The notes beneath the pieces are model-generated. The model did no database searches, was not told where the DNA came from, and saw only the letters and a program-made list of their open reading frames with translations. Shown piece after piece: positions 6,688 to 30,296 of a stretch of DNA of 64,000 nt (positions are counted from its first letter, which is position 1; each line of letters starts with the position of its first letter). The translations under genes and the position numbers were made by a program. Source of the stretch: an uncultured Clostridia bacterium (GTDB lineage: Bacteria; Acidobacteriota; Aminicenantia; UBA2199); contig CAZLSH010000002.1 of assembly GCA_964562095.1 (NCBI GenBank), forward strand, positions 9,597 to 73,596. Reading direction: 5' to 3'.

Positions 6688-6691
6688 GCGA

Positions 6692-8016: not shown

Positions 8017-8017
8017 A

Positions 8018-9400: not shown

Positions 9401-10453
9401 ATGGACCTCCAGGAGCGCCTGCAGCGGCTGTATCGCGAGCCGAACCGCGGCGACCTGATCCATTTTCTTGCCACTCCCGATATGAACGAGGTCGGGTGTT
9501 TGTACGACTTCGCCGACCGCGTGCGTCGCGAGCATGTCGGCGACGCCGTTCACCTGCGGGCCATCGTCGAGTTCTCCAGCTTTTGCCGCAACGACTGCCT
9601 CTACTGCGGCCTGCGCCGCTCCAACCACGCCCGCCGCCGGCTGCGCATGCCTCTGGATGAGATCGTCGCCCAGTGCCGACGGGCGGAGACGCTCGGCTTT
9701 CGCACGGCAGTACTGCAGTCGGGCGAGGACCCGTTCTACGGCCGCGAGGCGATCGCCGGCCTGGTGCGCCGGGTGAAGGCGGAGACCGGCCTGGCCGTCA
9801 CCCTGGCGGTGGGGGAGAGGAGCGAGGAGGAGTACCGGGCCTTCTTCACGGCCGGAGCCGACCGCTACCTGCTCAAGCACGAGACGTCGGACCGCGAGCT
9901 CTACGAGAGGCTCGACCCGGGTCTGAGCCACGAGCGGCGCATCGGCTGCCTGCGGCTGCTGAAGCGCATCGGCTTCCAGACCGGCAGCGGCATCATGGTC
10001 GGCCTGCCGGGACAGAGCCTGGAAAGCATCGCCGACGATATCCTGCTGTTCCGCGACCTGGACCTCGACATGATCGGCTGCGGCCCGTTCATTCCGCACC
10101 CGGCGACGCCACTGGCAGCGGAGCCGCCGGGAAGCGAGGAACTGACCTACCGCGTGCTCGCCCTGGCGCGACTTGTCACCCGCGACACCCACATCCCGGC
10201 CACCACCGCCCTGGCGGTCACGGCCGGCGACGCCGGGCGCGCCAGCGCCCTGTGCCGCGGCGCCAACGTGGTCATGCCCAACATTACCCCCCAGCCCTGG
10301 CGCGGCGCCTACGAAATCTATCCCAGCAAGGGGCGGACGGAGGTCTTTGACCCGTCCCTGCTGGAGCGGCTGCGGCGGACGCTCTGCGAGCTGGGACGTT
10401 TCATTGCCGAGGACGCCGGCGAACGGGTAGGATTCCCCCATTCGATTTCTTGA
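9401..10453 (+). CDS. hydE: [FeFe]-hydrogenase maturase HydE (radical-SAM, biotin-synthase-like)
   Basis: Radical-SAM CRNDCLYC motif, a 350-aa BioB-like fold, and its start overlaps the hydG stop (TAGATG). Confidence 0.85.
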   Translation: MDLQERLQRLYREPNRGDLIHFLATPDMNEVGCLYDFADRVRREHVGDAVHLRAIVEFSSFCRNDCLYCGLRRSNHARRRLRMPLDEIVAQCRRAETLGFRTAVLQSGEDPFYGREAIAGLVRRVKAETGLAVTLAVGERSEEEYRAFFTAGADRYLLKHETSDRELYERLDPGLSHERRIGCLRLLKRIGFQTGSGIMVGLPGQSLESIADDILLFRDLDLDMIGCGPFIPHPATPLAAEPPGSEELTYRVLALARLVTRDTHIPATTALAVTAGDAGRASALCRGANVVMPNITPQPWRGAYEIYPSKGRTEVFDPSLLERLRRTLCELGRFIAEDAGERVGFPHSIS

Positions 10454-10619: not shown

Positions 10620-10695
10620 GAGCCAGTGATTCCCAAGCCGGAAGAAGAAAAATGTGGATTGTAAGTGAAAAAAATCGATGAAAGGAGAAAAAACC

Positions 10696-12177: not shown

Positions 12178-12945
12178 TCAGAAAGTCCTGACGCGTCCCA
12201 GCAGACGCAGCAGTCCGTCCAGGATCGTGTAGGGGTGGGGAGGACAGCCGGGGATATAGAGATCGACGGGAAGCATCTCGTCCACGCCGTGGTGGACGTC
12301 CGCGTGCCCGGCGAACATGCCAGCAGAAATGGCGCAAGCCCCGACGGCAATGACGATCTTCGGTGCCGGCGTGGCGTCATAGGTCTTGCGCAGCGCCAGC
12401 TCCATGTTGGCCGTCACCGGCCCGGTCACCAGCAAGCCGTCGGCGTGGCGCGGAGAGGCGACGAACTGAATGCCAAAGCGGGCCAGATCGAACACGATGG
12501 TATTGAGCACATTGATGTCGGCTTCGCAGGCGTTGCAGCCGCCGGCGCTGACCTGGCGCAGGCGCAGTGAGCGGCGGAACAGCCGCAGACGTTTGGGCTC
12601 CAGTGGCCGGGCATGAAGAAAGCAGGCATCTCCGCTGACGGCCAGGCCGCGTCTTTCGTTGGCGGCGAGGATGTATCCGGCGGTGAATGTGATCACCTGA
12701 TCGGGGCAATGGCGCGCGCAAGCGCCGCAAAAGATGCAGCGGCCCATATCGATGACCGCCGTGCCCTGCGCCTTATGGATTGCCTGTACCGGGCAAACCC
12801 GGATGCAGGCGCTGCAGCCGCTGGCGCATTTCCCGGCGGCGATCTTCGGTAAGCCCAGGAAGCGGTCCGGCAGGATAGCTGCCTGCTTCGGGTATTGCAC
12901 CGTGCGTTGACGCTGGGCGATCCTTGTTTTCAGAACATTCGCCAT
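12178..12945 (-). CDS. Fused 2x[4Fe-4S] ferredoxin (NuoI/HycF-like) and NuoB/HycG-like small subunit of an energy-converting hydrogenase-related complex
   Basis: The N-terminus has two Cys clusters (CASGCSACIRVCP, CIFCGACARHCP). The C-terminus has the NuoB/small-subunit cluster ligands GGCNACE, GACA, GCPP. Confidence 0.8.
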   Translation of the reverse strand: MANVLKTRIAQRQRTVQYPKQAAILPDRFLGLPKIAAGKCASGCSACIRVCPVQAIHKAQGTAVIDMGRCIFCGACARHCPDQVITFTAGYILAANERRGLAVSGDACFLHARPLEPKRLRLFRRSLRLRQVSAGGCNACEADINVLNTIVFDLARFGIQFVASPRHADGLLVTGPVTANMELALRKTYDATPAPKIVIAVGACAISAGMFAGHADVHHGVDEMLPVDLYIPGCPPHPYTILDGLLRLLGRVRTF

Positions 12946-12961: not shown

Positions 12962-14485
12962 TCATAGATCAAATCCACAGTATGACAAGTTGAAGCTCTT
13001 GTTGCAGAGCGGGAAATCGGAGATCGGTTGGCCGCGCATGGCCAGCGCCAGGCCGAACCAGTTGTGGAACGACGGGTCGACGATCTTGTAGCGCTGGAAA
13101 CGGCCGTTCTTGTCGGTGATGGCCACGTGGCAAATTTCTCCCCGCCAGCCTTCGACGAGCGCCACTGTGAGCGCCGAGGCTCTTGCCGGCAGGGGGCCGG
13201 CGGCGATCTCCTTGCCTTTCTGCGCCCTGAACGGCGTGTCCGTTCTGCCCAGATGTTCCAGCAGGAACGCGCAGGATGCCTGGACCTCGCGCCAGCGCAC
13301 ATGCGCTCGGCTGAACACATCGCCTGAATCATGGCTGCAGACCGGAATATGGGCGAAGCGGTAGTACCCATGGGCATGGTCCTGGCGCACGTCTTGAAAG
13401 CAATCGCAGGCGCGCAGCGCCGGGCCGACCAGACCGATGCTCTCCGCCGTTTCCCGCGCCAGCCGGCCTGTGCCCTCGAAACGGGCGAGGATGGAGGCGT
13501 CCTCCCAAAGAAGGCCGGTCGCGCCCAAGAAATCAGAGGTTGAGCCTTGAAGCTTTTTGGACAGCTCCGCTTTTCTTTTCTCATCCAGGGCGAATCCGCA
13601 ACCGCCGGGGACCACCAGGCCGCGGCCGAAGCGGTTGCCGCAGAGCACGGCGGTCATGTTCAGGAAATCACCGCGGATTCTGCCGCAATACGACATGGTG
13701 GGCAGAAAGCCAATGTCCCCGGCCAGCGCGCCCAGATCGCCGACATGGTTGGCGCACCGTTCCAGCTCCAATGCCAATGCCCGCACCATGCCGTCATGGG
13801 CAGAGATCTTGCAGCCGGCCAGTGATTCAACGACCTGGCAATAAGCGCTCATGTGGCCCACCGAGGTGTCGCCGGCGATCACGGCCATCTGAAAGGGCGA
13901 GACGGGGAAGGGCCCGCCACGCAGCGCGTTCTCGATACCGCGGTGCTGGTAGCCCAGTGATATCTCCAGGTGGAGGACCGTCTCCCCGTGGCATTGGAAG
14001 CGGAAGTGCCCCGGCTCGATGATCCCCGCGTGCACGGGGCCGACCGCCACTTCGTGGATCCCTTCGCCACGGACCCGGAAGTAGTCGATCCGGCCGATGG
14101 AGGAAGCCGGCCCTTGCTCCTTTGCCGCCGGCTGGGGAAAACGGACCGCCTTGAGCCAGGGATGGCCCTGGGGCCGCAGCCCGGTCTGCTCGCAGATCTC
14201 CCTTTCGAAGAGATGGACTTGGGGAAAACGGGGGGTCAGGGAGGGGAAATCCTTTTTCCTGGTTATGGTGGAGATGACGGAGAGGGAGCCATTGCGGTCG
14301 TCTGCGGCCACGGCGTACAGTTGGACCTTTTGGGCGTCGAGGCGGTCGCCGAAATAGGCGCAGACCCGGAATCCCCGGTCCAGCAGTACGGCCAGAGACT
14401 CGACGAAGTCGTCCAAGTCAAGGACGGGAACATCGGCCAATGGGATGACCTGGCCGTTGCCTATGCGAGGGATGGCGGCGCTCAT
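12962..14485 (-). CDS. NuoC-NuoD fused large subunit, group 4 hydrogenase / Ehr-like, lacking the NiFe-ligating cysteine motifs
   Basis: Only the 3-prime 1.5 kb of the listed 892-aa ORF looks protein-like; the real start is MSAAIPRIG at 14485. It has the NuoD/HycE signature GPVHAGIIEPGHFRF...HRGIE. Where HycE has RVCGICGFAH this protein reads VIAGDTSVGHMS, and its C-terminus is DFPLCNKSFNLSYCGFDL instead of DPCxxCxxR. It overlaps the next gene by 4 nt. Confidence 0.8.
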   Translation of the reverse strand: MSAAIPRIGNGQVIPLADVPVLDLDDFVESLAVLLDRGFRVCAYFGDRLDAQKVQLYAVAADDRNGSLSVISTITRKKDFPSLTPRFPQVHLFEREICEQTGLRPQGHPWLKAVRFPQPAAKEQGPASSIGRIDYFRVRGEGIHEVAVGPVHAGIIEPGHFRFQCHGETVLHLEISLGYQHRGIENALRGGPFPVSPFQMAVIAGDTSVGHMSAYCQVVESLAGCKISAHDGMVRALALELERCANHVGDLGALAGDIGFLPTMSYCGRIRGDFLNMTAVLCGNRFGRGLVVPGGCGFALDEKRKAELSKKLQGSTSDFLGATGLLWEDASILARFEGTGRLARETAESIGLVGPALRACDCFQDVRQDHAHGYYRFAHIPVCSHDSGDVFSRAHVRWREVQASCAFLLEHLGRTDTPFRAQKGKEIAAGPLPARASALTVALVEGWRGEICHVAITDKNGRFQRYKIVDPSFHNWFGLALAMRGQPISDFPLCNKSFNLSYCGFDL

Positions 14486-15969
14486 CGGCCGATCCCCCTT
14501 TCCACCGCGGCTGCCGCGTCCCGCAAAAAGGCGGAGAAAGGCTCGGGAAGCCATATTCCCAGCAGCAGCAGCGCTGCCGCCAGGCCCAGGACGATCAGGA
14601 TATCGGGCAACCGGGGCTTTGCGGCCGCAGGCAGCGCGCCGCTGCCGCCGCCGAAGGAAACAGCCATGGCGTTTTTCAGGGCGCCGAAAAAAACGGCCAG
14701 GACGCAGAAAAGGAATAGCCCGACGATAAAGTATCGCCCCTGGAAAAAGGCCTGCTTGACGATCAGGAATTCGCTGAGGAAGATCGAGAAGGGCGCCACG
14801 CCGATCAACGCCAGGATGGATAGGAAGAAAGCCCCGCCCCAGAGAGGCACGCGCTCGCCGGCGGCGCTGATCCGCCGCATGTCTCTGGTCCCGTAATGGA
14901 CGCTGATATGGCCGGCGGCAAAGAAGGAGAGGACCTTGGCGAACGAATGGTTGGCGGTGTGCAGCAGGGCCGCGAACGTGCCGATGCCGCCGAGTCCCAG
15001 TCCCACCGCGATGATGCCCATGTGCTCCACGCTGCAGTAGGCCAGGAAGCGCTTGATGTCGCTCTGGATGGGAATGAAGATCGCCGCGAAAAGCAGCGAG
15101 GTGAACCCGAAGATCAGGATGATGGCCTGGGCCTGCCCGTCCCCGCCCATCGCTGCCTTGGCGATCGGCAGGTAGCGCATGATGCAAAAGAGGGCGCAGT
15201 TGAGCATCACCCCGGAAAACGCCGCCGAAACCGGCGTCGGGGCCTGGCTGTGGGCGTCGGGGAGCCAGGTGTGCATGGGCGCCAGCCCGGCCTTGGTCCC
15301 GAAGCCGACCACGATGAAAACGAAGGCGAAGAGCATGAGTTGCGGGTCGATCTGGTCCGCATGCCGCGCCAGCCGGCTGAAAAGGAACTGCGAGCCCGCC
15401 CCGGGCAGGTTCTTGGCCGCGGCGACCGTCAGGATCGTGCCCATGAAGGCGAAGACGATCCCCACCGAGCAAATGAGCAGGTACTTCCACATGGCTTCGA
15501 TGGAAAGGGGGTCGGTTTCGGAAATGATCAGGAACGCCGAGACCAGGGTCGTCGCTTCCAGGGCCACCCACATGACCCCGATGTGGTTGGACATCAGGAC
15601 CAGGAGCAGCATGGCCTGGAACGCCTGCCAGAGCATGCAATAGCGCTTGACGGCGGTGCGGCCCAGGTTGCCGGCCTGGATCCCGTGCTTGAAGTAACCG
15701 CCGGCATAGATGGCGGTGATCAGGAAGACCAGGTCGACGAGAACGATATGGTACAGGGAGAGGGAATCGATGAGCAGGATGCGGCCGTAATGGGAATAGG
15801 CCCCGCCGGCGAAAAAACGCAAGGCCAGCGGCAGCGTCAGGACGGCTGTGGCCAGGGAGGTGACGACCGGGATGCGCAGGGTGCGTCCGGCGTCGGTCAT
15901 GGGCAGGCAGGCCAGGATGCCGCCGCCGAGAACGGCGAAAATGACGGGAATGAAAATCGCCGTCGCCAT
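14482..15969 (-). CDS. NuoM/NuoN/HyfF/MnhD-like proton-translocating antiporter subunit
   Basis: GLAPMHTWLPDAH and AYCSVEHMG motifs in a ~14-TM, 495-aa protein. Confidence 0.8.
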   Translation of the reverse strand: MATAIFIPVIFAVLGGGILACLPMTDAGRTLRIPVVTSLATAVLTLPLALRFFAGGAYSHYGRILLIDSLSLYHIVLVDLVFLITAIYAGGYFKHGIQAGNLGRTAVKRYCMLWQAFQAMLLLVLMSNHIGVMWVALEATTLVSAFLIISETDPLSIEAMWKYLLICSVGIVFAFMGTILTVAAAKNLPGAGSQFLFSRLARHADQIDPQLMLFAFVFIVVGFGTKAGLAPMHTWLPDAHSQAPTPVSAAFSGVMLNCALFCIMRYLPIAKAAMGGDGQAQAIILIFGFTSLLFAAIFIPIQSDIKRFLAYCSVEHMGIIAVGLGLGGIGTFAALLHTANHSFAKVLSFFAAGHISVHYGTRDMRRISAAGERVPLWGGAFFLSILALIGVAPFSIFLSEFLIVKQAFFQGRYFIVGLFLFCVLAVFFGALKNAMAVSFGGGSGALPAAAKPRLPDILIVLGLAAALLLLGIWLPEPFSAFLRDAAAAVERGIGR

Positions 15970-16616
15970 CAGCGCCTCAACTTTTCCAGCGAGCCGCTGC
16001 TGATGGTGTCGTACTCGCTATGGATGTGATGGACGACCATAACCATGATGAACACGCCGACGAGCATGTCCAGCAGAATGCCCATTTCCACGAAAAGGGG
16101 CTGGAAGGCGGCGATGGAGAGGCCCAGGATGAAGCCTGAGTTTTCGAAAACCAGGTAACCGATGATTTGACTGACCACGTTGCGCCGCGCCACGATGAGA
16201 AAAAGTCCGATAAACGCCGTGGCGATGGCGGTGGAGGCGTGAAACGGCGATATCGTGACCGAGTAGAACGGAATTTTTCTGAGCACATAGAAGGCGAAGG
16301 CCGAGGTCAGGATGCCGAAGGTGACCGACAGCGAATAGCCGATGGCGGGGTCGACCTCGCGCACGACGCGCACGTCCCGGATCGCCCGGCGTAGATAGCG
16401 GGGGATCAGAATGCCCTTGATGGCCATGCTTAAGAAGACGAGGAGGAACATGTGGATCCTCTCCGCCGGATTCGGCAGGAGCAGGGGCAGAACGCTTAAA
16501 AGCAGCCCCTGGGCAGCGACGCCGCGGATCATGCCCGAAAGCCGGCTCGTAGCCAGCATATACAGGTTGCAAACGACGATGGCGAGTGAAACCCAGGCCA
16601 GCGGATTGAATCTCAT
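15969..16616 (-). CDS. HyfE-like small membrane subunit (hydrogenase-4 component E family)
   Basis: A 215-aa polytopic membrane protein with a HyfE-like profile, positioned between the NuoH-like and NuoM/N-like genes. Confidence 0.65.
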   Translation of the reverse strand: MRFNPLAWVSLAIVVCNLYMLATSRLSGMIRGVAAQGLLLSVLPLLLPNPAERIHMFLLVFLSMAIKGILIPRYLRRAIRDVRVVREVDPAIGYSLSVTFGILTSAFAFYVLRKIPFYSVTISPFHASTAIATAFIGLFLIVARRNVVSQIIGYLVFENSGFILGLSIAAFQPLFVEMGILLDMLVGVFIMVMVVHHIHSEYDTISSGSLEKLRR

Positions 16617-16623
16617 TTTCCGC

Positions 16624-17541
16624 TTACCATGCGAGTGCCCCGGTCACGCTGATAAAAAAACCCAGCAAGGCGATCACGCCCGCGGCGAATAGAAGTTGCG
16701 GCACCTTGAGCAGCGGCACCCGGGCCATGGACGACTCCACAACGCCCACGATGGCGGCGATCAGGGCGATCAGCGCCACGAGCACGATCGTCTGCAGCAG
16801 TGGCGACGAGCTCGAAACAGGGAGCAAAATCCTCGCCAAAACCAGCGAAAACAACCAGAGCTTGATCGCCGCCGCATATTCCAGCAGCGCCAGCCCCGGG
16901 CCGCTGTTATCCAGGATCATCGCTTCGTGGATCATGGTGAGTTCCAGGTGGGTGTTCGGGTCATCGAATGGGATACGGGCATTCTCGGCCATGAGAACGA
17001 TGAACAGCGGCAGCGCCGAGAGCAGCACGGTGATGGAATCGGCGACCATGGGGGCGGAGAGAGCCGTCATGATGCTGCCGGTGCCATTCGCACGCATGAC
17101 GTTGAGCAGGCAGACGAACAGGACGGGCTCGGCGAGCGCCGAAAAAAAAGCCTCGCGGCTCGCCCCCATGCCGGCGAATGACGAACCGGTGTCGAGGGCG
17201 GACAGGATCAGGAAGAATCTTGCCAGGCCCAGGAGATACAGCAACATGACCACATCGCCGGTGAACAGCGGCTTCGGGCTCAGCATCAGGAAGGGCACAA
17301 AACAGGTTGCGGCGAGGGTAGCGGTGAAGATCACGACCGGGGCCATGCGGAACAGCCACGAGGTCGTCATGCTGGTTACGGTGCCTTTGTGCAGGAGGCG
17401 AAAAAGATCATAGTAGGCTTGGAGGAGCGGTTGCCCTTTGCGCCCGGCGAACATGGCCTTGACGCGGTTGATGATCCCGGCCAGCAGCGGCGAGAAGGCC
17501 AGTGCTGCGGCCGGGGAGATGAGAAAGGCGCTGATGTTCAT
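16624..17541 (-). CDS. NuoH/HycD/HyfC-like membrane subunit
   Basis: The N-terminal motif RVKAMFAGRKGQPLLQ matches the HycD/NuoH family; the protein is 305 aa with 8 TM. Confidence 0.8.
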   Translation of the reverse strand: MNISAFLISPAAALAFSPLLAGIINRVKAMFAGRKGQPLLQAYYDLFRLLHKGTVTSMTTSWLFRMAPVVIFTATLAATCFVPFLMLSPKPLFTGDVVMLLYLLGLARFFLILSALDTGSSFAGMGASREAFFSALAEPVLFVCLLNVMRANGTGSIMTALSAPMVADSITVLLSALPLFIVLMAENARIPFDDPNTHLELTMIHEAMILDNSGPGLALLEYAAAIKLWLFSLVLARILLPVSSSSPLLQTIVLVALIALIAAIVGVVESSMARVPLLKVPQLLFAAGVIALLGFFISVTGALAW

Positions 17542-19523
17542 AGGAAGAACTTCCAGATGATCAGACAGAAAACGGTCAGTGCGATGTAGAACACATATTG
17601 CCCGGTTTTGCCACTCTGGAACCAGCGCAGCAATGAGAACGCCCTGTCCAGGGATCTGACCAGTGGAGAGAACAGCCGGGTCAGGAACCAGTCATCCACG
17701 CCCGCATGAAACGACCAGTTGTCCATGGGGAATAATTCCCTGTCGTTCCGGAGCTGCTCGTGCCCATGCAGGGGAAGCTGGAAATGCTTGATGAGCGGAG
17801 CGGCGAAAGAAGAGGCCGTGTATTGCATGGTCGGGCCGGGTTGGCTGTAGCCGCAATCCCACGTGACGGCGCCCGTCACGGCCCGCCCCCTGCGCTTCAT
17901 GATCGAGCGCCAGGCGTAGAAAAAAACGGCGGCCAATGCCAGCAGGCCCAGGATGATGCTCACGGTCAAAGTCAATGGGAAGAGCGTCCGGGCCGCCGCA
18001 TCGGCAGGGCCGAAAAACATCAGGACCGGTCGAATTAAAACCGGGAGCATGGCCATACTGAATAGGCCTATGAGCAGGCATAGCGCGGCCAGCAAGCCCA
18101 TGGACCAGAGCATGGGAGCCGGAGCTTCTGTTGGCGTGAGCTCTGTTTTCGTGCGTGCTTCACCAAGGAAAACGATACCGAAAACTTTCGTGAAACAGGC
18201 CACGGCCAGACCGCCGATGAGCGCCAGCGAGATGATGACGGCAAGGCTCAGCAGCGCCAGCAGCGGCTGCGGAGCGTGCACGGCGCCGCTGATGCCCGCG
18301 ACGTAGATGAACAACTCGCTGATAAAGCCATTGAAGAACGGCAGGCCGCAGATGGCGATGGCGCCGACAAAGAACAAACTGCCTGTGCGGGGCATTTTTT
18401 TCAACAGGCCGCCCAGGCGATCGATCTCGCCGCTCCCCGTTTGCCGGATCACCGCCCCGGCCCCAAGGAACAGCAGTCCCTTGAATAGGGCATGATTTAC
18501 GACATGCAGCAGCCCGCCTGCGAAACCGAAAAGCGCGATGGTGCTGGAGCCGAAGGCCACCCCGGTCATGCCGATGCCGATGCCCAGGAGAATGATGCCG
18601 ATATTTTCAACGCTGTGATAGGCAAGCAATCTCTTGATATCATGCTGCCCGAGGGCGAAGAGCACTCCCAGTATGCCGGATATCGCTCCCAGGGCAATCA
18701 GGAGCATGCCCCACCAGGAGTGAAATGGCGCAATGAACGTCAACAACCGCATCAGCCCATATATGCCCATCTTGATCATGATCCCGGACATGAGCGCCGA
18801 TACATGGCTCGGGGCGGCCGGGTGCGCGAGGGGAAGCCAGACATGAAAGGGAATGAACCCCGCTTTCAAGCCGAATGCGATCAGGGCGAGGATGAATACG
18901 GCATCGGCCCTGGCGGCCGAGAAATGAATGCCGGTCCAGGCGTGAAAATCGAACGAGCCGGCTGACGCGGAAAGCTGGAGAAAAAGGACCAGCAGAAATG
19001 CCGTGCCTACGTGCGCCGTGACGAAATAGGTCCATCCGGCCCGGATCGCATCGGGGTTCTTTTTGTCGTTGATGACCAGGAAAAACGATGAGAGCGACAT
19101 GATCTCCCAGGCCAGGATGAACAGGACAGCGTTCCTGGCCAGGAGCACCATGACCATCCCGGAAACCAGCAAGCTGAAATAGAACCAATGGGAGCGTCCG
19201 GCGGGATGACTCCCGAAGTAACGCGTCCCGTAAAGTGAACTGGCTGCCGCCAGGATCAGCAGCGGGATCATGAATATGGCGCTCAAGGGGTCGATGCCCG
19301 CCCGCAGGCTGGCGAAGGGCAGTTGCCAGTTCAGCCAGCTGGAAATGATATTCGCGTCAATGCGGCGGAAAATCCAGAAAAGATATGCCAGGGTGATGAG
19401 GCTGCCGGCGGAAACAATGATGGCGGTCAGGTCCTTTAGCCGGGAGCCATGCTTGAACGGGTACAGGCTGAATACGCCAGCTGCACTGACAACGAAGACA
19501 TAAAAAATCAAGGGGTTCAGCAT
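17538..19523 (-). CDS. NuoL/HyfB/HycC/MnhA-like antiporter subunit
   Basis: LAWEIMSLSS, FHVWLPLAHPAAPSHVSALMSG and LAYHSVENIG motifs; 661 aa. Confidence 0.85.
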   Translation of the reverse strand: MLNPLIFYVFVVSAAGVFSLYPFKHGSRLKDLTAIIVSAGSLITLAYLFWIFRRIDANIISSWLNWQLPFASLRAGIDPLSAIFMIPLLILAAASSLYGTRYFGSHPAGRSHWFYFSLLVSGMVMVLLARNAVLFILAWEIMSLSSFFLVINDKKNPDAIRAGWTYFVTAHVGTAFLLVLFLQLSASAGSFDFHAWTGIHFSAARADAVFILALIAFGLKAGFIPFHVWLPLAHPAAPSHVSALMSGIMIKMGIYGLMRLLTFIAPFHSWWGMLLIALGAISGILGVLFALGQHDIKRLLAYHSVENIGIILLGIGIGMTGVAFGSSTIALFGFAGGLLHVVNHALFKGLLFLGAGAVIRQTGSGEIDRLGGLLKKMPRTGSLFFVGAIAICGLPFFNGFISELFIYVAGISGAVHAPQPLLALLSLAVIISLALIGGLAVACFTKVFGIVFLGEARTKTELTPTEAPAPMLWSMGLLAALCLLIGLFSMAMLPVLIRPVLMFFGPADAAARTLFPLTLTVSIILGLLALAAVFFYAWRSIMKRRGRAVTGAVTWDCGYSQPGPTMQYTASSFAAPLIKHFQLPLHGHEQLRNDRELFPMDNWSFHAGVDDWFLTRLFSPLVRSLDRAFSLLRWFQSGKTGQYVFYIALTVFCLIIWKFFL

Positions 19524-19530
19524 ACGGCGA

Positions 19531-20286
19531 TCATGGTTTGACGGACTCTTTGCGCAAAGTACTCTCGAAGGCGGCCAGGGTATCGAGGATCAGCTGGCGG
19601 TTGGATGTCCCCTTGAGCACGCAGCGGATGGCGGGCTGGTGCAGGGCATAGCTGAGCCTGGACAGAATGTGAAGGTGGGAACGGACCGTGTGGGTGATGA
19701 TGGTGAAGACGGTATCAACCGCCTTGCTGTCCAGGGCGTTGAAGTCGATGGGCTGTTCAAGAAAACACAGCGCCAGGACCGGTTTTTTCACATGAAATAT
19801 GATCGGGTTTCTGACGTGGGGGATGGCGATGCCGTCGCCGATGGCGGTGGTGCCGAGGTTCTCCCGCGCCAGTAGAGCTCCGATCAGGAATTCCCTGTCC
19901 ACATCGTCGGGGAGGTGCATGATGTTGACGATCGACCGGAGCACGCTCTCCTTGTCCGTGCCGGGGATGCGATAATGGATGCCTCCGGCGTTGAGCGACT
20001 CGGTCAGCGCCGGCATTTCATCGTCGGTCTCGAAAGGTTCATCGAATATCGCGGGGGAGAGCTTTATTTTTCTGGCCGTGGCCCATTCCAGCAATTCCAC
20101 CCTGTTGAAGCGATAACCTTCACCGATCTTGTAGGCTGGGATCTCTTTTTTCGCTATCCAGCGGTAGATTGTTTTATCCGAAACCGCCAACATCTGGGCA
20201 ACTTCCTTTAATCCAATCATCATGGAAAAATTCAACTCCTTGCTTGAGAGTGCGGTTGGTATACTATAGAAAAATGTATAATCCAT
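19531..20286 (-). CDS. Regulator: excisionase/MerR-type HTH fused to a PTS EIIA(Fru/Ntr)-type domain
   Basis: N-terminal HTH_17-like helix (LKEVAQMLAVSDKTIYRWIAKKEIPAYKIGEGYRFNRVELLEWA). The C-terminal PTS_EIIA_2 domain carries the phosphorylatable His motif GIAIPH. It lies 8 nt upstream of the NuoL-like gene on the same strand. The start could instead be the MM pair at 20218-20223. Confidence 0.7.
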   Translation of the reverse strand: MDYTFFYSIPTALSSKELNFSMMIGLKEVAQMLAVSDKTIYRWIAKKEIPAYKIGEGYRFNRVELLEWATARKIKLSPAIFDEPFETDDEMPALTESLNAGGIHYRIPGTDKESVLRSIVNIMHLPDDVDREFLIGALLARENLGTTAIGDGIAIPHVRNPIIFHVKKPVLALCFLEQPIDFNALDSKAVDTVFTIITHTVRSHLHILSRLSYALHQPAIRCVLKGTSNRQLILDTLAAFESTLRKESVKP

Positions 20287-20347
20287 TTAGGCAAGAAAGT
20301 CAAGGCGTGTCCATGAATGTCCATTATCGTTGGCGCGGATGCCAATG

Positions 20348-20470
20348 AGTGATTTGAAATGTCTGGATATGGTTTTTCCTGAAAGCGTTGGCCACATCGC
20401 CGGCGGCGGCTTCTTCGTCGCCACCCTGTACTGGCTGGCTTACGTGCGCAAGCCCAAGAAGGCCGCCTAG
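20348..20470 (+). CDS. Candidate small hydrophobic peptide (ILNVWIWFFLKALATSPGGGFFVATLYWLAYVRKPKKAA), GTG/TTG start uncertain
   Basis: The frame is open from a GTG at 20348 to a TAG at 20468-20470. It has a TM-like composition, is followed by a strong terminator, and has no clear SD. Confidence 0.2.
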   Translation, partial: SDLKCLDMVFPESVGHIAGGGFFVATLYWLAYVRKPKKAA

Positions 20471-20490
20471 GGCGTTTTCCCGATCCTTTC

Positions 20491-20522
20491 GGGCCGCTGC
20501 CGCAAGGGGCGGCCCTTTTTAT
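20491..20522 (+). terminator. Rho-independent terminator (GGGCCGC-loop-GCGGCCC-TTTTTA)
   Basis: A 7-bp GC stem with an 11-nt loop followed by a T-run. Confidence 0.6.
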
Positions 20523-20634
20523 TTGATTCGTTGCGCCAAGTGGCGAGTGCTGAGCCCGCTGGGCGGGCAGGGCAACCGGCCAGGGCAAGAAGGCGCAAGT
20601 CGAAGAAGCGGCAACCCCGAGGCCCCTCCTCCCC

Positions 20635-21888
20635 TCACTCGATCTGCGCGGAGACGTACTCGGTCAGCTTCCCCAGGCAGTTCACGTAACTGCCGTACTC
20701 GTTGTCGTACCAGCCCATGATCTTGGCGTGGGTGACGGGGATATTGACCTCGCGCATGCCACTGACGCCGATGGCCGCCAGCACGTCCTGGGGAACCTGC
20801 AGGAAGCCGGTCCGGGTGTGGATCTCCTGGCCCTCGATCACGACGGCGGCGGGAAAGCCCAGCAGGTCCTGGGACACGTTCTGCTTGGTGGAAAAGACGA
20901 GCAGGCCCTTCTGCGCCCCGTCCGCGGCCGAGCGGTAGATTCCCTTGATGTGCTCGGTGTTGATGAAGGGCATGCCGTTCTCGTTCAGGCGGGAGCTGAA
21001 GGTGATGTTGAGGGCGATCAGCGAGACGGACGGCGTGGGGATGCGGATGGAATCGGCCATGAAGCCGAAGCGGCTCGTCTGCGGGATCACCTTCTCCAGC
21101 GTCTTGGCGGCGCCGGTCGAGGAGAGGATGATGTTGTTCAGGACCGAGCGGTTCTTGCGCAGGTCCGAGGCGCCGGCGGCGGGAACGGAGTCCAGGACGC
21201 TCTGGGTATTGGTGGCGGCGTGGACGGTGGACATGGAGGCCGTGAGGATGTGGCTGGTTTCGCGGTCTTCCAGCAACGGCTTGATCATGTGGGCCAGGCC
21301 GGTCGTCGTGCAGCTGGCCGCGGAGACGATGTTGTGGCGCATGGGGTTGAAGCTGGCGTGGTTGATGCCGTAGATCAGGGTGGGGCAGGCCTCGGCGTCG
21401 GTCCAGGACGCTCTCTTGGACTTGAAGGGGGCGCTGACGATGACCTTCTGGGCGCCGGCCGCCAGGTGCCCGGCGACGCTGCCCCGGGCGTCACTGGCGG
21501 GGACGCCGGGATCCAGGAACTTGCCGGTGCAGTCGACGACGACACGCACCCCCTCTTCCTTCCAGCGCAGGTTCTGGGGGTTCCGCTCCCGGTTCAGGAA
21601 CTTGACCCGGAACCCGTCGATCGCCAGCCAGCCGTTGGGCCCGTCGACGACCTCGATGGCGCACGTCCGGCCCGAGTGGCCGTGCAGGAAGTGGTCCAGC
21701 GAGCCGTAGGTCGAGTCCGAGCGGATCGCCTGGATGAAATCGTCGACGCTCTTGCCCACGTCCCGGCCCACGTTGGCCACGATGCCGTCGAACTTGCGGG
21801 AGACCAGGTGATACCACAGGGTCAGCTTGCCGATGCGGCCCAAGCCGTTGACCCCCAGCAGCTTCTTGTCATGGATGCTTGCGTTCAC
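20635..21888 (-). CDS. gap: Glyceraldehyde-3-phosphate dehydrogenase family protein, long form (~417 aa) with internal insertions
   Basis: NAD-binding GVNGLGRIGK, catalytic ASCTTTGLAH and C-terminal WYDNEYGSYVN motifs. A GTG start at 21886-21888 is preceded by AAGGAGAAGG; the N-terminal 85 aa of the listed ORF look like non-coding read-through. There is an extra ~80 aa relative to canonical GAPDH. Confidence 0.7.
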   Translation of the reverse strand: MNASIHDKKLLGVNGLGRIGKLTLWYHLVSRKFDGIVANVGRDVGKSVDDFIQAIRSDSTYGSLDHFLHGHSGRTCAIEVVDGPNGWLAIDGFRVKFLNRERNPQNLRWKEEGVRVVVDCTGKFLDPGVPASDARGSVAGHLAAGAQKVIVSAPFKSKRASWTDAEACPTLIYGINHASFNPMRHNIVSAASCTTTGLAHMIKPLLEDRETSHILTASMSTVHAATNTQSVLDSVPAAGASDLRKNRSVLNNIILSSTGAAKTLEKVIPQTSRFGFMADSIRIPTPSVSLIALNITFSSRLNENGMPFINTEHIKGIYRSAADGAQKGLLVFSTKQNVSQDLLGFPAAVVIEGQEIHTRTGFLQVPQDVLAAIGVSGMREVNIPVTHAKIMGWYDNEYGSYVNCLGKLTEYVSAQIE

Positions 21889-21911
21889 GATGCCTTCTCC
21901 TTCATGGTATT

Positions 21912-24900
21912 TTACAATGCCTGGATCTGGATGGGATAATTCCCTTGGTAGACGATGCCCTTGTGGCCGTCGATGGCGATCGGGTCGCAGGACAGAAAGA
22001 CAGTGCCGTTGATGACGCAGCGCTTGTCGCCCTCGGACACGAGCATGTCGTCGCAATTGACGACGCAGGTCTTGCCCAGCGTGGCCGCGGTAACGGCGGC
22101 GTGGGAGGTCGCGCCGCCCTTGCTGGTCAGCAGTCCCTCGCACTCGATGATCATCTCGATGTCCTCGGGCACGGTGTCGGGGCGGACCAGGACGGCCTTC
22201 TGCCCCGGGGCGCGCCGGCGCAGGGCCGCCAGGTCGTCGCGGTCGAAGACGACGGCCCCGTTCAGCACGCGGTTGCCGATGCCGATGCCGCAGCCGACCC
22301 GCTTGCGCTTCTTCTCGGGCGTGGCGAACGTTTCGATCTCGGTCTGCTTGACGATGACCATGTCCCGCGTTTGCAGGATGTACAGGTCCTCAGGCTCGGC
22401 CTTTTCGAACGTGAACTCGATTTCCTGGTGGCCGAAGCCGTGGACCTCGATGAGCTCGTTGGCGATCCGCTTGAGACGGTCGTAGATCCTCGGAAATGCG
22501 GTCTCGAGCGAGAACGGGCTCTTGCGGTAGTAGGTCCGCCGCTGGTTTTCGCTGATCGGCAGGGTGTTGACCAGGCCGGCGACGATGTCTTCGCCCTGGC
22601 TGAGGAAGGTGAAATCGCCGGCCAGGTTGACGCCGGGAACATCGTCGTTCACGTCATGGGTGAACAGCACCCCGGAGCCCGATTCGTTGTGCAGGTTGCC
22701 GAAGATCATCTGCTGCACGATGACGGCCGTGCCCCACTCGGGGGCGATCTGCATGTGGTTGCGGTAGAAGCGGGCCCGCGGCGTGTCCCAGGAGTTGAAC
22801 ACGGAGATGACGGCCTCCTTGATCTGCAGGAAGGGGTCGCTCGCGAACTGGATGCCGTGGTCGCGCAGCAGCCCCCGGTAGGCGAAGGCGATCTCGCGCA
22901 TGACCGGCGGCGGGAAATCGATCTTGCGCGCCACGTGGCGCGCGCGCTTGAAGCTGTCCATGATCTGGTCGAACTGGTTCCGTTCCAGGCCGTAGGCCAT
23001 GCCCCACGTCTGCAGCAGGCGGCGGTAGCAGTCCCACGACGTCCAGCCGAAGTTGGGCTGGCGGCTGAGCTCCTCGGTGATCTCGTCGTTCAGCCCCACG
23101 TTGAGGAAGGTGTTCATGGCGCCGGGCATGGAGATGGCGGCCCCGGAACGGACGCTCAGCAGCAGGGGCTGGCGGGGATCGCCGAAGCGCAGGCCCGAGA
23201 TGCGCTCGAGCTCCGAGACGTGGCGGCGGATCAGGGCGTCGATCTCCGCGTTCAGCGACGGGATCTTCAGGATCGCCTGCACCCGGCGGAAGACCTCGGT
23301 GGTAAGCACGAAGCCGGGCGGTACCGGAAAGCGGTTCAAGTAGAGCTTCTTCAGGTAATAGGCCTTCGAGCCCAGGAACACCTGGTTGTCCATCGCCGGC
23401 GTGCCTTCATAGAGGGGGCTGATCACCAGGTCGGGGTCGTAGGCCATGATGCTCTGGATCTCCGGGTCGGAGAGGTTGCCGGCAAACTTGCGCAGGTTGT
23501 TCAGGACCTCGCCGATGAACTGGTCCAGGGTCTGGAGCAGAAACGCCGAGGAGAGGAGCTCGCGGTAGAAGATCTCCGCCTTCTGGCAGACGACCTTGCG
23601 GTCGGCGTCTGGCACGTACTGGGGAATGATGACGTTCAGGAGACGGTCGTAGGGGCGGATGAAAAACTTGTTGATGATTTCCTTGACGCTGGTCTCCATG
23701 AACTGAAAAATGTTGATGTATTGGCGGATGGTGAAGCTGCCCGAGGTGAGGCTGTACAGGAGCATCTTCAGGTTGGCGTCGAATCCCTGGTCGTAGATCC
23801 CGTCCAGGCTCAGCCCCTCCTGCAGCAACTGGATGACCGCGTAGATGTTCTTCAGGGTCTTGGCGGTGAAATAGTCAGTGTGGATCCCGGCCATGACGTC
23901 GGCGACCAGGACGGCGGCGATGCGCTCGAGCCGGAAGGTCAGCCCCAGGGCCTCGAACTTGGGCTCGCGGTACTCGCCGTACATGGAGGGGATGCCGAAG
24001 GCGACATGCCGCTTGTAGTAGATGTTTTCCCAGCCCTCGCTCGGCTGCGGGTCGAAGAGGATGGCGTTCAGCTTGCCCATGAACTGGTAAATGAGCTTCA
24101 GGGCCTCCACGCTCCGGTTGGCGGCCAGGGCGGCCTCCAGCCGCTGGCGGTCCTCGGCGGCGATGAAGGCGTGCCGCACCAGCAAGCGGCCGATGTCATC
24201 GGTCTCAAAGTGGTATTTTTCCTTCAGCAGCTGGTGCAGCTCGACGATCAGGGCCACGCGCCTGGCGTCGCTGCCGCCGCCCTGGGCCAGCGCGTCCAGG
24301 CTCCGCGCGCGCTCCTTGGCCTGCCGCGCCAGCCAGTCGTCCACGGAGAGGGAGCCCTCCGCCAGCAGCCCGGACAGGACCTGGTGCACCCCCCGCACCC
24401 ACGGCCCGGCGGGTTCAATCGTCTCCAGGACGTTCTGGGGGACGAGGCCCTTGAGGCGCTCCGCGTCCAGGTCGGCCCAGAAGCGGATGATCTCCGCCGT
24501 GAGCTGGATGTGCGTGTTGTTGCCCTCGGCGTGGACCTGCTTGCGCAAAAAATGGATCAGCTTGTCGTTGCGGTGGGTGATCTCGTCGAGCCTCGTCGTC
24601 ACGTCGCGCAGGCGCCCCTCGGCCCCGATCTCGTTAAAATACACCGGGAAGATCCGGGTCAGCTGCTTGATCTGCTTGTAAATGGGCGACACGGTGGCGT
24701 TCAGCAGCCGGGTGACGTCCTTTTGGAACAGGTCGGTGTCGAAGATGAAGATGCCGCCGACGCGCAGGTTGATGATCAGCGCCGACAGCAGGTTCTTCAT
24801 CGTCTCTGGGTCGTACTCGATCAGCTCCAGCCAGACGCGGATGTTCTTGACGTGGTTGGGATTGACGTTCAGCGACCACTCGTCGGTCAGGCGCGCCGCG

Positions 24901-25985
24901 CCGGGGGAAACGAAGCCGAAGCGGATGACGCGGTCCTCGAAATGGTGGATCAGCCGCCGGTTGTGGGTGTTGATGATCTCCTTGCCCAGCCCCAGGATGG
25001 AATCGAGGATCAGGCTCGTGCTGTCGTGCTTCAGCTCGGCGAAGAGCCCGAACAGTTCGTCGACGGCCTGAACGGTCTGGTCCTCGCTCAGCTCCTGGCC
25101 GATCCTGCGGATGGCGTTGTTCAGGTCGATGAGCAGGTAGTCCCGATGGTACACCATGCCCGGCAGGTGGATCAGGTACAGGATGTAGCGGAACTGCTCG
25201 GCGGCCCGGGCGAAGCGGTCGGTCGTCTTGCGGAAGGAGTCGATGACGTCGGGAAAGGCGAAGGACTGCTTGGCCAGGTCCGCCCAGGTCCGGGCGTGCT
25301 TCAGGTCGCGTAGGCAGGCGTTGAAAAAGCCGCGTCCCAGCGGCTTGAGCGCCGGCGCATAGTCCCGCGACATGATGCGGCGGTTGGCCTGGTACCAGGC
25401 CTCGATGTCGGCCGTGTCGCGCCAGAACAGGATGCTTTTCTCGATTAGGCGGCGCATGAAGGCGAACGCCTCCGGCGCCGCCGCGCCCGCGGCCGCGCCG
25501 TCGAGGCTTTTGCCGAAGTAGCCGAGGTTGCTCATGTACCCGAACAGGTGGTTGTCCAGGTGGACGTCGAGGATGGCGATGAAGCGCCGGTCCAGCGGCT
25601 CGCTTTCGGCCGCGGCGTCCTGGTTCTTGCTGAAGAAATGGAGGAAGAGGAAGACCAGGCGCCGGGACAGCTCGTCGGACAGCCGCTCGCGAAGCAGGGC
25701 GTCGAACAGGTCTAGGAAGAGCTGCAGGACGCGGCCGCACTCGTCCCGTTGGCGGTACACCCAGAAGTCGCTGACGGCCACCTGGCCGAGCAGATCGATG
25801 ACCTCCTTGCGGTTCGAGTAGGGGTGGTTGAACTCGGTGACGAATTCGCAGGCCCGTTGGTGGATCCCCCAGGTGCTGGTCGTGAGCGACAGCAGCCACT
25901 GGTGCTCCGCGGGAATCGCGAACTCCACGCTCCGCGTCTCGGCCAGGTTGGCCTCGAGCGCCTCGGAGCGGATCGCGCGGGTCAT
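21912..25985 (-). CDS. Large PPDK-like protein: unassigned ~700-aa N-terminal region, then a pyruvate,phosphate dikinase-type ATP-grasp nucleotide-binding domain and a phosphohistidine (PEP-utilizer mobile) domain; no PEP/pyruvate TIM-barrel domain
   Basis: The middle region is colinear with the PPDK N-terminal domain (LGSKAYYLKKL...FPVPPGFVLTTE, LLLSVRSGAAISMPGAMNTFLNVGLNDE, GTAVIVQQMIFGNLHNESGSGVLFTHD, GEDIVAGLVNTLPIS, EIEFTFEKAEPEDLYILQTRDM). The C-terminus is GLLTSKGGATSHAAVTAATLGKTCVVNC (catalytic-His swivel domain). It overlaps the upstream gap by 4 nt and sits 23 nt from the downstream long gap. Confidence 0.75.
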   Translation of the reverse strand: MTRAIRSEALEANLAETRSVEFAIPAEHQWLLSLTTSTWGIHQRACEFVTEFNHPYSNRKEVIDLLGQVAVSDFWVYRQRDECGRVLQLFLDLFDALLRERLSDELSRRLVFLFLHFFSKNQDAAAESEPLDRRFIAILDVHLDNHLFGYMSNLGYFGKSLDGAAAGAAAPEAFAFMRRLIEKSILFWRDTADIEAWYQANRRIMSRDYAPALKPLGRGFFNACLRDLKHARTWADLAKQSFAFPDVIDSFRKTTDRFARAAEQFRYILYLIHLPGMVYHRDYLLIDLNNAIRRIGQELSEDQTVQAVDELFGLFAELKHDSTSLILDSILGLGKEIINTHNRRLIHHFEDRVIRFGFVSPGAARLTDEWSLNVNPNHVKNIRVWLELIEYDPETMKNLLSALIINLRVGGIFIFDTDLFQKDVTRLLNATVSPIYKQIKQLTRIFPVYFNEIGAEGRLRDVTTRLDEITHRNDKLIHFLRKQVHAEGNNTHIQLTAEIIRFWADLDAERLKGLVPQNVLETIEPAGPWVRGVHQVLSGLLAEGSLSVDDWLARQAKERARSLDALAQGGGSDARRVALIVELHQLLKEKYHFETDDIGRLLVRHAFIAAEDRQRLEAALAANRSVEALKLIYQFMGKLNAILFDPQPSEGWENIYYKRHVAFGIPSMYGEYREPKFEALGLTFRLERIAAVLVADVMAGIHTDYFTAKTLKNIYAVIQLLQEGLSLDGIYDQGFDANLKMLLYSLTSGSFTIRQYINIFQFMETSVKEIINKFFIRPYDRLLNVIIPQYVPDADRKVVCQKAEIFYRELLSSAFLLQTLDQFIGEVLNNLRKFAGNLSDPEIQSIMAYDPDLVISPLYEGTPAMDNQVFLGSKAYYLKKLYLNRFPVPPGFVLTTEVFRRVQAILKIPSLNAEIDALIRRHVSELERISGLRFGDPRQPLLLSVRSGAAISMPGAMNTFLNVGLNDEITEELSRQPNFGWTSWDCYRRLLQTWGMAYGLERNQFDQIMDSFKRARHVARKIDFPPPVMREIAFAYRGLLRDHGIQFASDPFLQIKEAVISVFNSWDTPRARFYRNHMQIAPEWGTAVIVQQMIFGNLHNESGSGVLFTHDVNDDVPGVNLAGDFTFLSQGEDIVAGLVNTLPISENQRRTYYRKSPFSLETAFPRIYDRLKRIANELIEVHGFGHQEIEFTFEKAEPEDLYILQTRDMVIVKQTEIETFATPEKKRKRVGCGIGIGNRVLNGAVVFDRDDLAALRRRAPGQKAVLVRPDTVPEDIEMIIECEGLLTSKGGATSHAAVTAATLGKTCVVNCDDMLVSEGDKRCVINGTVFLSCDPIAIDGHKGIVYQGNYPIQIQAL

Positions 25986-26989
25986 GTCCGTTCGCCGAGG
26001 TGCCGGAGCAGGTCGATGATGCGCGCCGCGTACCCCGTCTCGTTGTCGTGCCAGGCCAGGACCTGGACCAGGTCGCCGTCCAGCACCTTGGTGGCGAGGG
26101 AATCGAAGACGGCCGAGTGGCGGTTGCCGCCCACGTCGCTGCTCACGATAGGGTCGGAGACGTATTCGAGGATGCCGGCGAGCTCCCGCGCCGCGTGCCG
26201 GCGGAAGGCCTCGTTGATCTCCTGGCGGCGAGCCGCCCGCCGCAGCTGGGCGGTCAATTCCACGAACGAGCAGTCGGCGACCGGGACCCGGGTGGCCAAG
26301 CCGTCAAAAAGGCCCCGCAGTTCCGGGAAGATGGTCTGGACGGCCGGGACGGCGCTGGTGGTGGTGGGGATGATGTTGCAGATGGCCGAGCGCGCCCGGC
26401 GGAAGTCGGCGTGGGGCCCGTCCTGGAGGTTTTGGTTGTTGGTCACGGGATGGATGGTGTTCAAGAAAGCCCGCCTGACCCCGAATTCGTCCAGCAGCAC
26501 CCGCAGCATGATCGCGACGCAGTTGGTCGTGCACGAGGCGTTGGAAATGAGTGCGTCCCCGGGCTGCAGGTCATGGTGGTTGACGCCCACGACAACCGTC
26601 CGGTCCAGGGAACCGTCGCGGGCCGGGCAGCTCAGGATCACTTTCCGGGCGCCGTTTTCCAGGTGGCCTTGCAGGGAAGGCCGGTCCTTGAACCTGCCGC
26701 TGGCTTCGACGACGAACTCCGCTTGCCCCTGCCGCCAGGGGATGGCGGCCGGACTGGCCGCGCCGCTGACGGGGATGCTCCGGCCGTCGACGAGGAGGCC
26801 GCGGGCATCATAGCCGACCTTGGCCGGGAGCTTTCCGTGCAGGCTGTCGTAGGCGAGCAGATGGGCCATCAATTCGACGCCCATCGGATCGTTGACCTGC
26901 ACGACCTGCAGATCCGGCGTCTCCAGGGACAGGCGCAGCACCAGCTTGCCGATCCTGCCGAAGCCGTTGATGCCGATTCGGGCGGCCAT
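25982..26989 (-). CDS. gap: Glyceraldehyde-3-phosphate dehydrogenase, canonical type I
   Basis: MAARIGINGFGRIGK, ASCTTNC and WHDNETGYA motifs; 335 aa. Confidence 0.9.
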   Translation of the reverse strand: MAARIGINGFGRIGKLVLRLSLETPDLQVVQVNDPMGVELMAHLLAYDSLHGKLPAKVGYDARGLLVDGRSIPVSGAASPAAIPWRQGQAEFVVEASGRFKDRPSLQGHLENGARKVILSCPARDGSLDRTVVVGVNHHDLQPGDALISNASCTTNCVAIMLRVLLDEFGVRRAFLNTIHPVTNNQNLQDGPHADFRRARSAICNIIPTTTSAVPAVQTIFPELRGLFDGLATRVPVADCSFVELTAQLRRAARRQEINEAFRRHAARELAGILEYVSDPIVSSDVGGNRHSAVFDSLATKVLDGDLVQVLAWHDNETGYAARIIDLLRHLGERT

Positions 26990-30147: not shown

Positions 30148-30296
30148 GGCGTTTCCGGCAATCCGGGGGACATCGAGGAGGAGATCGCCTGTCCGCCGGG
30201 GCTGAAGACAATAAGACGTTTCCTCTAGGGGAATGGTTTCCATTCCGCCTCCGAAAAACAACTTTTAATGAAAACATTATAGGATCATTAATAATT

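Follow-up and report, generated by a model that had tools for sequence, protein, structure and literature searches.

EhrR, a winged-helix/EIIA protein encoded ahead of the Ehr membrane complex, is a likely regulator of the ehr operon and a plausible reader of phosphotransferase-system phosphorylation

Ehr complexes, such as that of Geobacter (GSU0739-0745), are composed of antiporter-like, NuoH-like, HyfE-like, NuoCD-like and NuoIB-like subunits and have lost the NiFe cysteines of the related hydrogenases. In published accounts their function is unknown and no regulator is described (PMC7894505, PMC13194489 and PMC6349859). Here, a gene cluster of the same composition was analysed together with the gene directly in front of it in DNA from an uncultured Clostridia bacterium (GTDB lineage Acidobacteriota; Aminicenantia; UBA2199). 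The window, to which all positions refer unless a related locus is named, is a stretch of 64,000 nucleotides of contig CAZLSH010000002.1 (assembly GCA_964562095.1). The gene in front of the cluster encodes a helix-turn-helix (HTH) domain of the HTH_17 type joined to a type-2 EIIA domain of the phosphotransferase system (PTS), and the name EhrR is proposed here for this HTH_17-EIIA_2 regulator. Our assessment, held with moderate confidence, is that EhrR would be a one-component transcription factor dedicated to the ehr operon and regulating its own expression, most likely phosphorylated and following the state of the PTS. Regulation of the Ehr complex by EhrR appears likely, and PTS phosphorylation is a plausible signal.

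Both halves of EhrR have described counterparts. The C-terminal domain is like PtsN (E. coli 1A6J, Burkholderia 3URR and 4GQX, Neisseria 2A0J) in its sequence, predicted fold, Arg/His/His triad and G-I-A-I-P-H loop, and PtsN is likewise a regulatory and not a transport-linked EIIA. However, PtsN is a stand-alone protein of about 160 amino acids (aa), encoded in an rpoN-ptsN-ptsO context and acting by protein-protein contact, whereas EhrR is a winged-helix fusion encoded by the first gene of an Ehr cluster. The PRD activators (MtlR, LicR, ManR, LevR and CelR) resemble EhrR in combining a DNA-binding domain with a PTS-phosphorylated EIIA_2-type domain, so that the PTS state is passed on to the transcription of one operon. 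They are proteins of 600–900 aa with an Mga/HTH domain, two PRDs and an EIIB-like domain, and act on sugar PTS operons in Firmicutes; EhrR, in contrast, has 230 aa, an HTH_17 domain and neither PRD nor EIIB, and its presumed target is a respiratory-type membrane complex. The N-terminus falls in the same class as the MerR-like winged helices (HTH_17) of BldC, Xis and RacA, and the candidate operator at the EhrR gene is built of phased direct repeats, as for BldC and Xis. BldC and Xis differ in being single-domain proteins that lack a sensor and in their AT-rich repeats (AATTnnnnC), compared with TGTCCA units in 10-bp phase and a phospho-sensor domain in EhrR. Classical MerR regulators carry a coiled-coil dimeriser and use a palindromic operator in a 19-20-bp spacer, whereas EhrR has an EIIA C-terminus and direct repeats outside or overlapping the -35 box. 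No description of the link between this regulator and Ehr, or of the HTH_17 plus EIIA architecture, was found in the searchable literature. The architecture is already present, under wrong names, in the databases, and the Ehr link, the operator-like site and the helix-site covariation described below appear to be undescribed.

The features of the regulator gene are as follows.

19531..20223, minus strand: coding sequence of EhrR with revised start, 230 aa (homologues about 230 aa, with the conserved N-terminus MMLDVKEVA)
20071..20211, minus strand: HTH_17 domain (Xis/MerR-like winged helix), residues 5-51 of the 230-aa protein (26-72 of the 251-aa frame)
19576..19989, minus strand: PTS EIIA type-2 (Mtl/Fru/Ntr) domain, residues 79-216 of the 230-aa protein (100-237 of the 251-aa frame)
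19816..19818, minus strand: codon CAC of His136 (His157 in the 251-aa frame), the predicted phosphorylation site in GDGIAIPHVRNP, aligning with PtsN His73
20236..20241, minus strand: Shine-Dalgarno-like AAGGAG, 12 nt 5' of ATG 20223, read from the sequence

The minus-strand open reading frame (ORF) 19531-20286 (251 aa), on which the initial annotation was based, is a genuine reading frame, but its start at ATG 20286 was not sustained. The gene most likely starts at ATG 20223 and encodes 230 aa, leaving the first 21 codons of the longer frame untranslated. This start was preferred because of the lengths and N-termini of the homologues, the spacing of the AAGGAG element and the location of ATG 20286. 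The 120 best homologues (55-92% identity) are nearly all 224-245 aa long, most of them exactly 230 aa, and begin with MM(L/I)xVKEVA; ATG 20286 precedes the putative -10 box and falls within the putative promoter. Public gene calls for the same sequence, all in one 90% cluster, give lengths of 220, 230, 238 and 251 aa. The GenBank call of 220 aa looks too short, because the start of the HTH domain would be lost.

Domain searches with hidden Markov models placed both halves of the protein far above the curated cut-offs, which bears out the annotated fusion of a DNA-binding helix to an EIIA-2 domain. The N-terminal half scored 59.3 bits for HTH_17 (PF12728; cut-off 27, E = 4e-16) and 55.4 bits for the NCBIfam 'excise' model (TIGR01764; cut-off 28.8, passed), and stayed below the cut-off of the MerR model (PF00376; 20.2 versus 28.2 bits). 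The C-terminal half scored 82.9 bits for PTS_EIIA_2 (PF00359; cut-off 27, E = 2.9e-23) over profile positions 5-141 of 144. These were the only Pfam domains detected in the regulator at E <= 0.01; neither a PRD nor an EIIB-like domain was found. The best matches of the HTH part among sequences in the PDB were RacA (5I41), Xis Gp37 (4J2N) and BldC (6AMK), all of them weak, and the recognition helix S-D/E-K-T-I-Y-R-W was near-invariant among the homologues of EhrR. An AlphaFold2 model calculated from 115 sequences, with a predicted local distance difference test score (pLDDT) of 87, contains a winged helix at residues 1-50, a low-confidence linker at about residues 55-72 and an EIIA fold. It superseded an initial model from 27 sequences (pLDDT 68), in which the EIIA core was poor. 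Foldseek aligned the EIIA part of the predicted fold with PtsN structures at template modelling (TM) scores of 0.77-0.84 and root-mean-square deviations of 2.2-3.1 Å.

By sequence also, the closest solved proteins of the sensor domain are of the PtsN/EIIA-Ntr type: E. coli 1A6J (E = 2.8e-11), followed by 3URR, 4GQX and 2A0J. Residues R120, H136 and H183 of EhrR align with R57, H73 and H120 of PtsN, and this triad, together with the loop G-x-x-x-A-I-P-H-V-R-N-P, was invariant in 115 homologues; the phosphorylatable histidine claimed for GIAIPH is present. Because the triad aligns with that of PtsN and is invariant in these 115 sequences, the phosphotransfer site is intact and strongly selected. 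EIIA-like folds serve as binding modules in other contexts, and the domain might instead be a ligand- or protein-binding module that takes no part in PTS phosphotransfer. Such a phosphorylation-independent sensor would be in line with the scores for the PtsN equivalog models TIGR01419 and NF008145, which were matched far below their cut-offs (64.8 versus 138.7 and 60.2 versus 221), as was the FruA equivalog model, with the lack of PTS genes nearby in the window and with the reduced PTS sets of many of the phyla involved. An invariant triad and GIAIPH loop across so many phyla would, on the other hand, be hard to explain without catalysis, and a PTS enzyme I gene adjoins the Ehr cluster in one related locus (L001, 12102-13853). 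We regard phosphorylation-independent sensing as improbable, and a phosphorylated EhrR as the better account of the domain.

The complex encoded downstream of EhrR comprises six genes.

17538..19523, minus strand: ehrA, HyfB/NuoL-like antiporter-type subunit, starting 7 nt after the stop codon of the regulator
16624..17541, minus strand: ehrB, NuoH/HyfC-like subunit
15969..16616, minus strand: ehrC, HyfE-like membrane subunit
14482..15969, minus strand: ehrD, HyfF/NuoM-like antiporter-type subunit
12962..14485, minus strand: ehrL, NuoC+NuoD-like fusion, a 'large subunit' without NiFe-binding cysteines, with an ATGA overlap with ehrD
12178..12945, minus strand: ehrS, fusion of NuoI (2x[4Fe-4S]) and NuoB

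EhrL was aligned with E. coli HycE (7Z0S), where 'iaGDtsvgH' takes the place of 'rvCGiCgfaH'. Both N-terminal NiFe cysteines are replaced, by A and T, and the first C-terminal one by S; the fourth position is ambiguous, with an adjacent cysteine one residue out of register. Because the NiFe cysteines have been lost in the large subunit, the complex is not a hydrogenase, and the label Ehr is justified. The regulator and ehrA are separated by 7 nt (19524-19530), one fewer than initially annotated. Across about 85 related loci, the ehrA start was mostly estimated to lie -22 to +45 nt from the regulator stop, and the two codons often overlapped. The short gap here and the tight gaps in most related loci agree with the annotation of the regulator as the first gene of the Ehr operon. 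Co-transcription of the regulator and ehrA is very likely, and co-transcription, often with translational coupling, is the predicted rule across the loci, since the gaps fall mostly within this range.

The association with Ehr genes was assessed from both sides. A HMMER search of 1.84 billion representatives (E <= 1e-30) yielded at least 317 clusters at 50% identity, and nearly all of the top 150 contained both domains at full length in about 216-246 aa. In a scan of one genome per species, at least 592 genomes from more than 10 phyla had a relative, the phyla including Planctomycetota, Verrucomicrobiota, Lentisphaerota, Fibrobacterota, Spirochaetota, Acidobacteriota, Elusimicrobiota, Myxococcota, Desulfobacterota and candidate phyla. 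Metagenome-assembled genomes assigned to the culturable species Blastopirellula marina and Leptospira biflexa (L062, L071) are among those with the cluster. With such numbers of clusters and species the architecture is not a rare design, as had been stated. Among 88 loci fetched via the regulator, two of which were too short to judge, the Ehr genes lay directly 3' on the same strand in all adequately flanked loci but two (L056 and L084). Counted over the informative loci, which come from more than 10 phyla, this arrangement held in about 82 of 86 (about 95%). Conversely, 80 metagenome loci were picked on EhrL alone; 30 were informative, and the regulator was found just 5' of the Ehr genes in 22 of these. 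EhrR is a hallmark of the majority of Ehr clusters of this type, though not of every one. The view that a general PtsN-like protein merely happens to lie beside the complex has in its favour only the names given in databases, for example 'nitrogen PTS system EIIA component'. It leaves aside the Ehr synteny kept across more than 10 phyla, the fusion to a DNA-binding domain and the protein's own operator-like site; we consider a chance neighbour highly improbable and effectively refuted by synteny, tight gaps and site enrichment.

Apparent inserts of unrelated genes (about 2 kb) between the regulator and ehrA or between ehrA and ehrB did not hold up, as most of them were a second EhrA-type subunit; in one locus the insert consisted of a SulP/STAS transporter and a second regulator paralogue. 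Tandem pairs of HTH_17-EIIA_2 genes were seen in L005 (9306-10699), L080 (7914-9388) and L084 (9256-10705), and the pair in L084 is followed by genes for an ECF sigma factor and a Ser/Thr kinase, not by Ehr genes. A SulP/STAS anion transporter stands beside the cluster in two loci (L043, 2539-5344; L161, 2431-4596), once with a second, divergent HTH_17-EIIA_2 paralogue, and a gene for the K+ transporter Kup follows the cluster in L088 (18219-20039). These extra neighbours (SulP/STAS, Kup and PTS enzyme I) may hint at the physiological context of Ehr, namely ions or bicarbonate together with the PTS.

The region in front of the regulator gene contains a candidate operator next to a putative promoter.

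20308..20323, no strand assigned: direct repeat resembling an operator, TGTCCAtgaaTGTCCA (gene strand: TGGACAttcaTGGACA), some 100 nt ahead of the ATG and abutting the -35 box
20275..20303, minus strand: putative sigma-70 promoter, TTGACT (20303-20298), 17 nt, TATACA (20280-20275), proposed from the sequence and its relatives

Read on the gene strand, the region is TGGACA-ttca-TGGACA-cgcc-TTGACT-17 nt-TATACA. The repeat (TGTCCA-N4-TGTCCA) has a phase of 10 bp, with its two best units around -45 and -55. In 10-bp phase with these, the TTGACT of the -35 box forms a third, degenerate unit. The promoter in the window was not called by a promoter scan, owing to the last base of the -10 box; the equivalent site in L088 was called. 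The repeat at 20308-20323 is the sole perfect copy in the window. For the related loci, motif copies were counted in the 250 nt upstream of each regulator gene (21.9 kb in total) and in the remaining 1.44 Mb of the same loci.

0 mismatches: 22 upstream, 0 elsewhere
1 mismatch: 46 upstream, in 43 of 89 loci; 2 elsewhere
2 mismatches: 72 upstream, in 59 loci; 68 elsewhere

The arrangement TGGACA-N4-TGGACA-N4-TTGACT-N17-TATnnT is kept in the close relatives L086 (one mismatch per pair) and L088, and L087 has retained one repeat unit and the promoter. In many loci of Verrucomicrobiota and Planctomycetota the pair has the opposite orientation and lies about 49 nt before the ATG, just past the -10 box. 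L028 has one pair that provides the -35 box and another, inverted, after the -10 box. The occurrence of the site (<= 2 mismatches) varied with the recognition helix of the encoded protein. It was present in 54 loci and absent from 14 when the helix read [STN][ED]K[TS][IVL]YRW, and present in 2 and absent from 27 when the helix was altered; some of the latter loci have variant phased units, e.g. TTGACA/TTGACC or CGTCC. The annotated idea that the regulator controls expression of the complex gains support from the operator-like repeat at its own promoter and from this covariation of protein and DNA.

Direct repeats in 10-11 bp phase are typical of the boxes of OmpR/PhoB-type response regulators. 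The repeats could accordingly be bound by another factor, for example one of that type, with the HTH-EIIA protein having another target or none, and the resemblance of the repeat unit to a -35 element might be added in favour of this. The site is confined to the vicinity of this gene (with up to one mismatch, 0-2 copies in the 1.44 Mb of flanks), no other regulator gene is consistently present, and the presence of the site tracks the sequence of the EhrR recognition helix; on these grounds binding by a different factor seems very unlikely, and EhrR itself is the preferred candidate. In Fibrobacterota-type loci (L001, 2938-3300; L002, 2162-2524; L006) an ArsR-type gene (HTH_20/HTH_5) overlaps the start of the regulator gene. 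No TGTCCA pair was found within 250 nt in these three loci, and the promoter and control of the operon may be different there.

The binding of the repeats by EhrR itself, its phosphorylation and the donor, and the sign of control are what we infer from the sequences. In the mechanism proposed, the N-terminal winged helix would bind the phased direct repeats, with 10 bp per unit and on one face of the DNA helix. Binding would probably be head-to-tail, as in BldC and Xis; this mode of direct-repeat binding has been documented for this type of winged helix in BldC (PMC5859096). The repeats lie at or beside the core promoter of the operon that encodes EhrR, and their occupation would make the system autoregulatory. 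His136 of the EIIA(Ntr)-like domain most likely takes its phosphoryl group from HPr~P or NPr~P, and the phosphorylation state would alter the oligomerisation of EhrR or its affinity for DNA. Transcription of the regulator and the complex would thereby track the phosphoenolpyruvate (PEP)/pyruvate ratio or the carbon/nitrogen state, as signalled by the PTS. Repression by occlusion of the promoter, relieved or enforced by phosphorylation, is slightly favoured, because the repeats overlap or abut the -35 box, the -10 box or the transcription start in several clades. The units at -45 and -55 in the clade of the window would equally suit an activator.

Several observations weigh against EhrR as a PTS-following transcription factor of the operon. 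Ehr clusters without the regulator made up 8 of the 30 informative loci selected on EhrL. In this independent and more divergent set the motif occurred at <= 1 mismatch in 3 of 18 loci (2 copies elsewhere in 850 kb), and because it is so much rarer there, TGTCCA as written is taken to be the site of the SEKTxYRW majority, not of the entire family. The covariation of helix and site, with a Fisher p of 1.3e-11, was calculated ignoring the kinship of the loci, and the likeness of the repeat unit to a -35 hexamer clouds the choice between activator and repressor. Genes for enzyme I, HPr or NPr were not found in the window or around the clusters of the related loci, with the exception of enzyme I in L001; a tblastn search of the window and 88 loci for enzyme I and HPr returned only this enzyme I gene, its own query. 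Finally, the regulator varies unusually little for a transcription factor. Its conservation was 1.10 bits/residue in the regulator-selected set, a comparison biased by how the loci were picked, and 0.83 in the EhrL-selected set, compared with 0.9-1.0 for EhrL and EhrS and 0.42-0.64 for the membrane subunits. That it is more conserved than all four membrane subunits hints at an extra constraint, e.g. a protein partner.

Such a partner could be the complex itself. EhrR might be a dual-function regulatory subunit, the EIIA domain of which also binds to the complex or to a single Ehr subunit and gates activity by its phosphorylation state. PtsN-type EIIA proteins classically act by protein-protein contact (e.g. 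PMC9239096), the stand-alone PtsN with TrkA, KdpD and other partners. A second function of this kind would also fit the level of conservation, which is that of EhrL and EhrS, the regulator stop codon that commonly overlaps or abuts the ehrA start and so suggests coupled translation, and the Kup gene 3' of the cluster in L088. Against it stand the 8 of 30 informative EhrL-selected clusters that do without the regulator, the bias by locus choice in the first conservation comparison, and the fact that a conserved operator and a conserved phosphodonor interface could also give high conservation. Overall, we consider a dual function possible but unlikely. Less likely again is the fuller version, in which EhrR, as a phospho-switch subunit, would tie the activity of the complex directly to the PTS (PEP/pyruvate or carbon, nitrogen or K+ state) while also setting transcription of the operon. 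The transcription factor of the ehr operon described above is the reading that we retain.

The DNA upstream of the regulator gene and its promoter contains two further features.

20330..20470, plus strand: 3' remnant of a formate/nitrite transporter gene (FNT/FocA-type), a 41-46-codon ORF of which the last 26-30 codons are homologous
20491..20522, plus strand: intrinsic terminator of the FNT remnant, with a GC stem (about 20491-20513) and a T-run after it; the minus strand shows no T-run

The small ORF had been taken for a possible small-peptide gene. It has no homologue in any related locus, and a conserved small protein at 20330-20470 was ruled out, as the sole relative in the databases is the end of an FNT transporter. 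This protein (P0134) is 77% identical to the remnant and carries PF01226, the match covering profile positions 217-240 of 240. The remainder of the FNT gene is gone, with the promoter of the regulator in its place. The terminator annotated as standalone is real; it is directed along the plus strand and belongs to the FNT remnant. An Rfam scan of 19400-20700 gave nothing above threshold, with no riboswitch or leader. A sub-threshold match to the suhB/mmgR small RNAs at 20445-20529 on the plus strand (30.1 bits, gathering threshold 41) lies over the terminator hairpin and is most likely just the terminator. Overall, what the initial annotation had observed at this locus was retained once the start codon, the gap and the small ORF were corrected, and of its interpretation control of the complex gained ground and rarity was given up.

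Farther upstream, the minus strand encodes a 1357-aa protein with PPDK_N and PEP-utilizers (mobile phospho-His) domains and without the TIM barrel, located between two GAPDH paralogues (20635-26989), the downstream one of which (ORF 20635-22143) is divergent. This trio is unusual and absent from the loci of close relatives. It is preceded by two tandem paralogous regulators of about 900-950 aa (27385-30261 and 30420-33146, both minus strand) that contain a beta-propeller/Y_Y_Y region and a LuxR (GerE) domain. Their C-terminal 190 or so aa are almost identical, which suggests a recent duplication or gene conversion; a similar beta-propeller/LuxR-type gene lies just 5' of the regulator in L087. 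On the other side of the Ehr genes, and convergent with the end of the cluster, the plus strand carries a HydA-like gene of the [FeFe]-hydrogenase type (Fer2_4, NADH-G, Fe_hyd_lg_C and SSU domains) followed by those for the maturases HydF, HydG and HydE (4832-10453), and then a gene for an MFS transporter (10678-12048). A selenocysteine-containing FdhA beside the cluster, suggested by an in-frame stop at 9398-9400, was rejected: the TAG lies between hydG and hydE, and the genes are HydA and HydF/G/E. At that place L086 and L087 have an MFS gene and a NuoG/molybdopterin (FdhA-like) gene, which recalls the hypothesis of a formate dehydrogenase-Ehr association (PMC6349859).

The assignment of EhrR corrects a systematic misannotation, as 'PTS sugar transporter subunit IIA' and 'nitrogen PTS EIIA component' are the names that databases give to proteins of this family. 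The known forms of PTS control over transcription are joined by a minimal one that has no PRD and is present in phyla such as Planctomycetota, Verrucomicrobiota, Fibrobacterota, Spirochaetota and Acidobacteriota, in which PTS signalling has barely been studied. If EhrR were in addition a phospho-switch subunit, more than 10 phyla would share in Ehr an ion or redox machine gated by the PTS, and the physiological role of the complex would become apparent from the conditions under which EhrR is phosphorylated. Complex I and the energy-converting hydrogenases have widespread relatives in the Ehr complexes, the substrate and physiological role of which have never been established (PMC7894505, PMC6349859). 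With a conserved regulator that has a sensor domain and a predictable DNA site, the question of when cells make Ehr becomes testable. The finding introduces no new principle; it offers a widely conserved handle on an open bioenergetic question.

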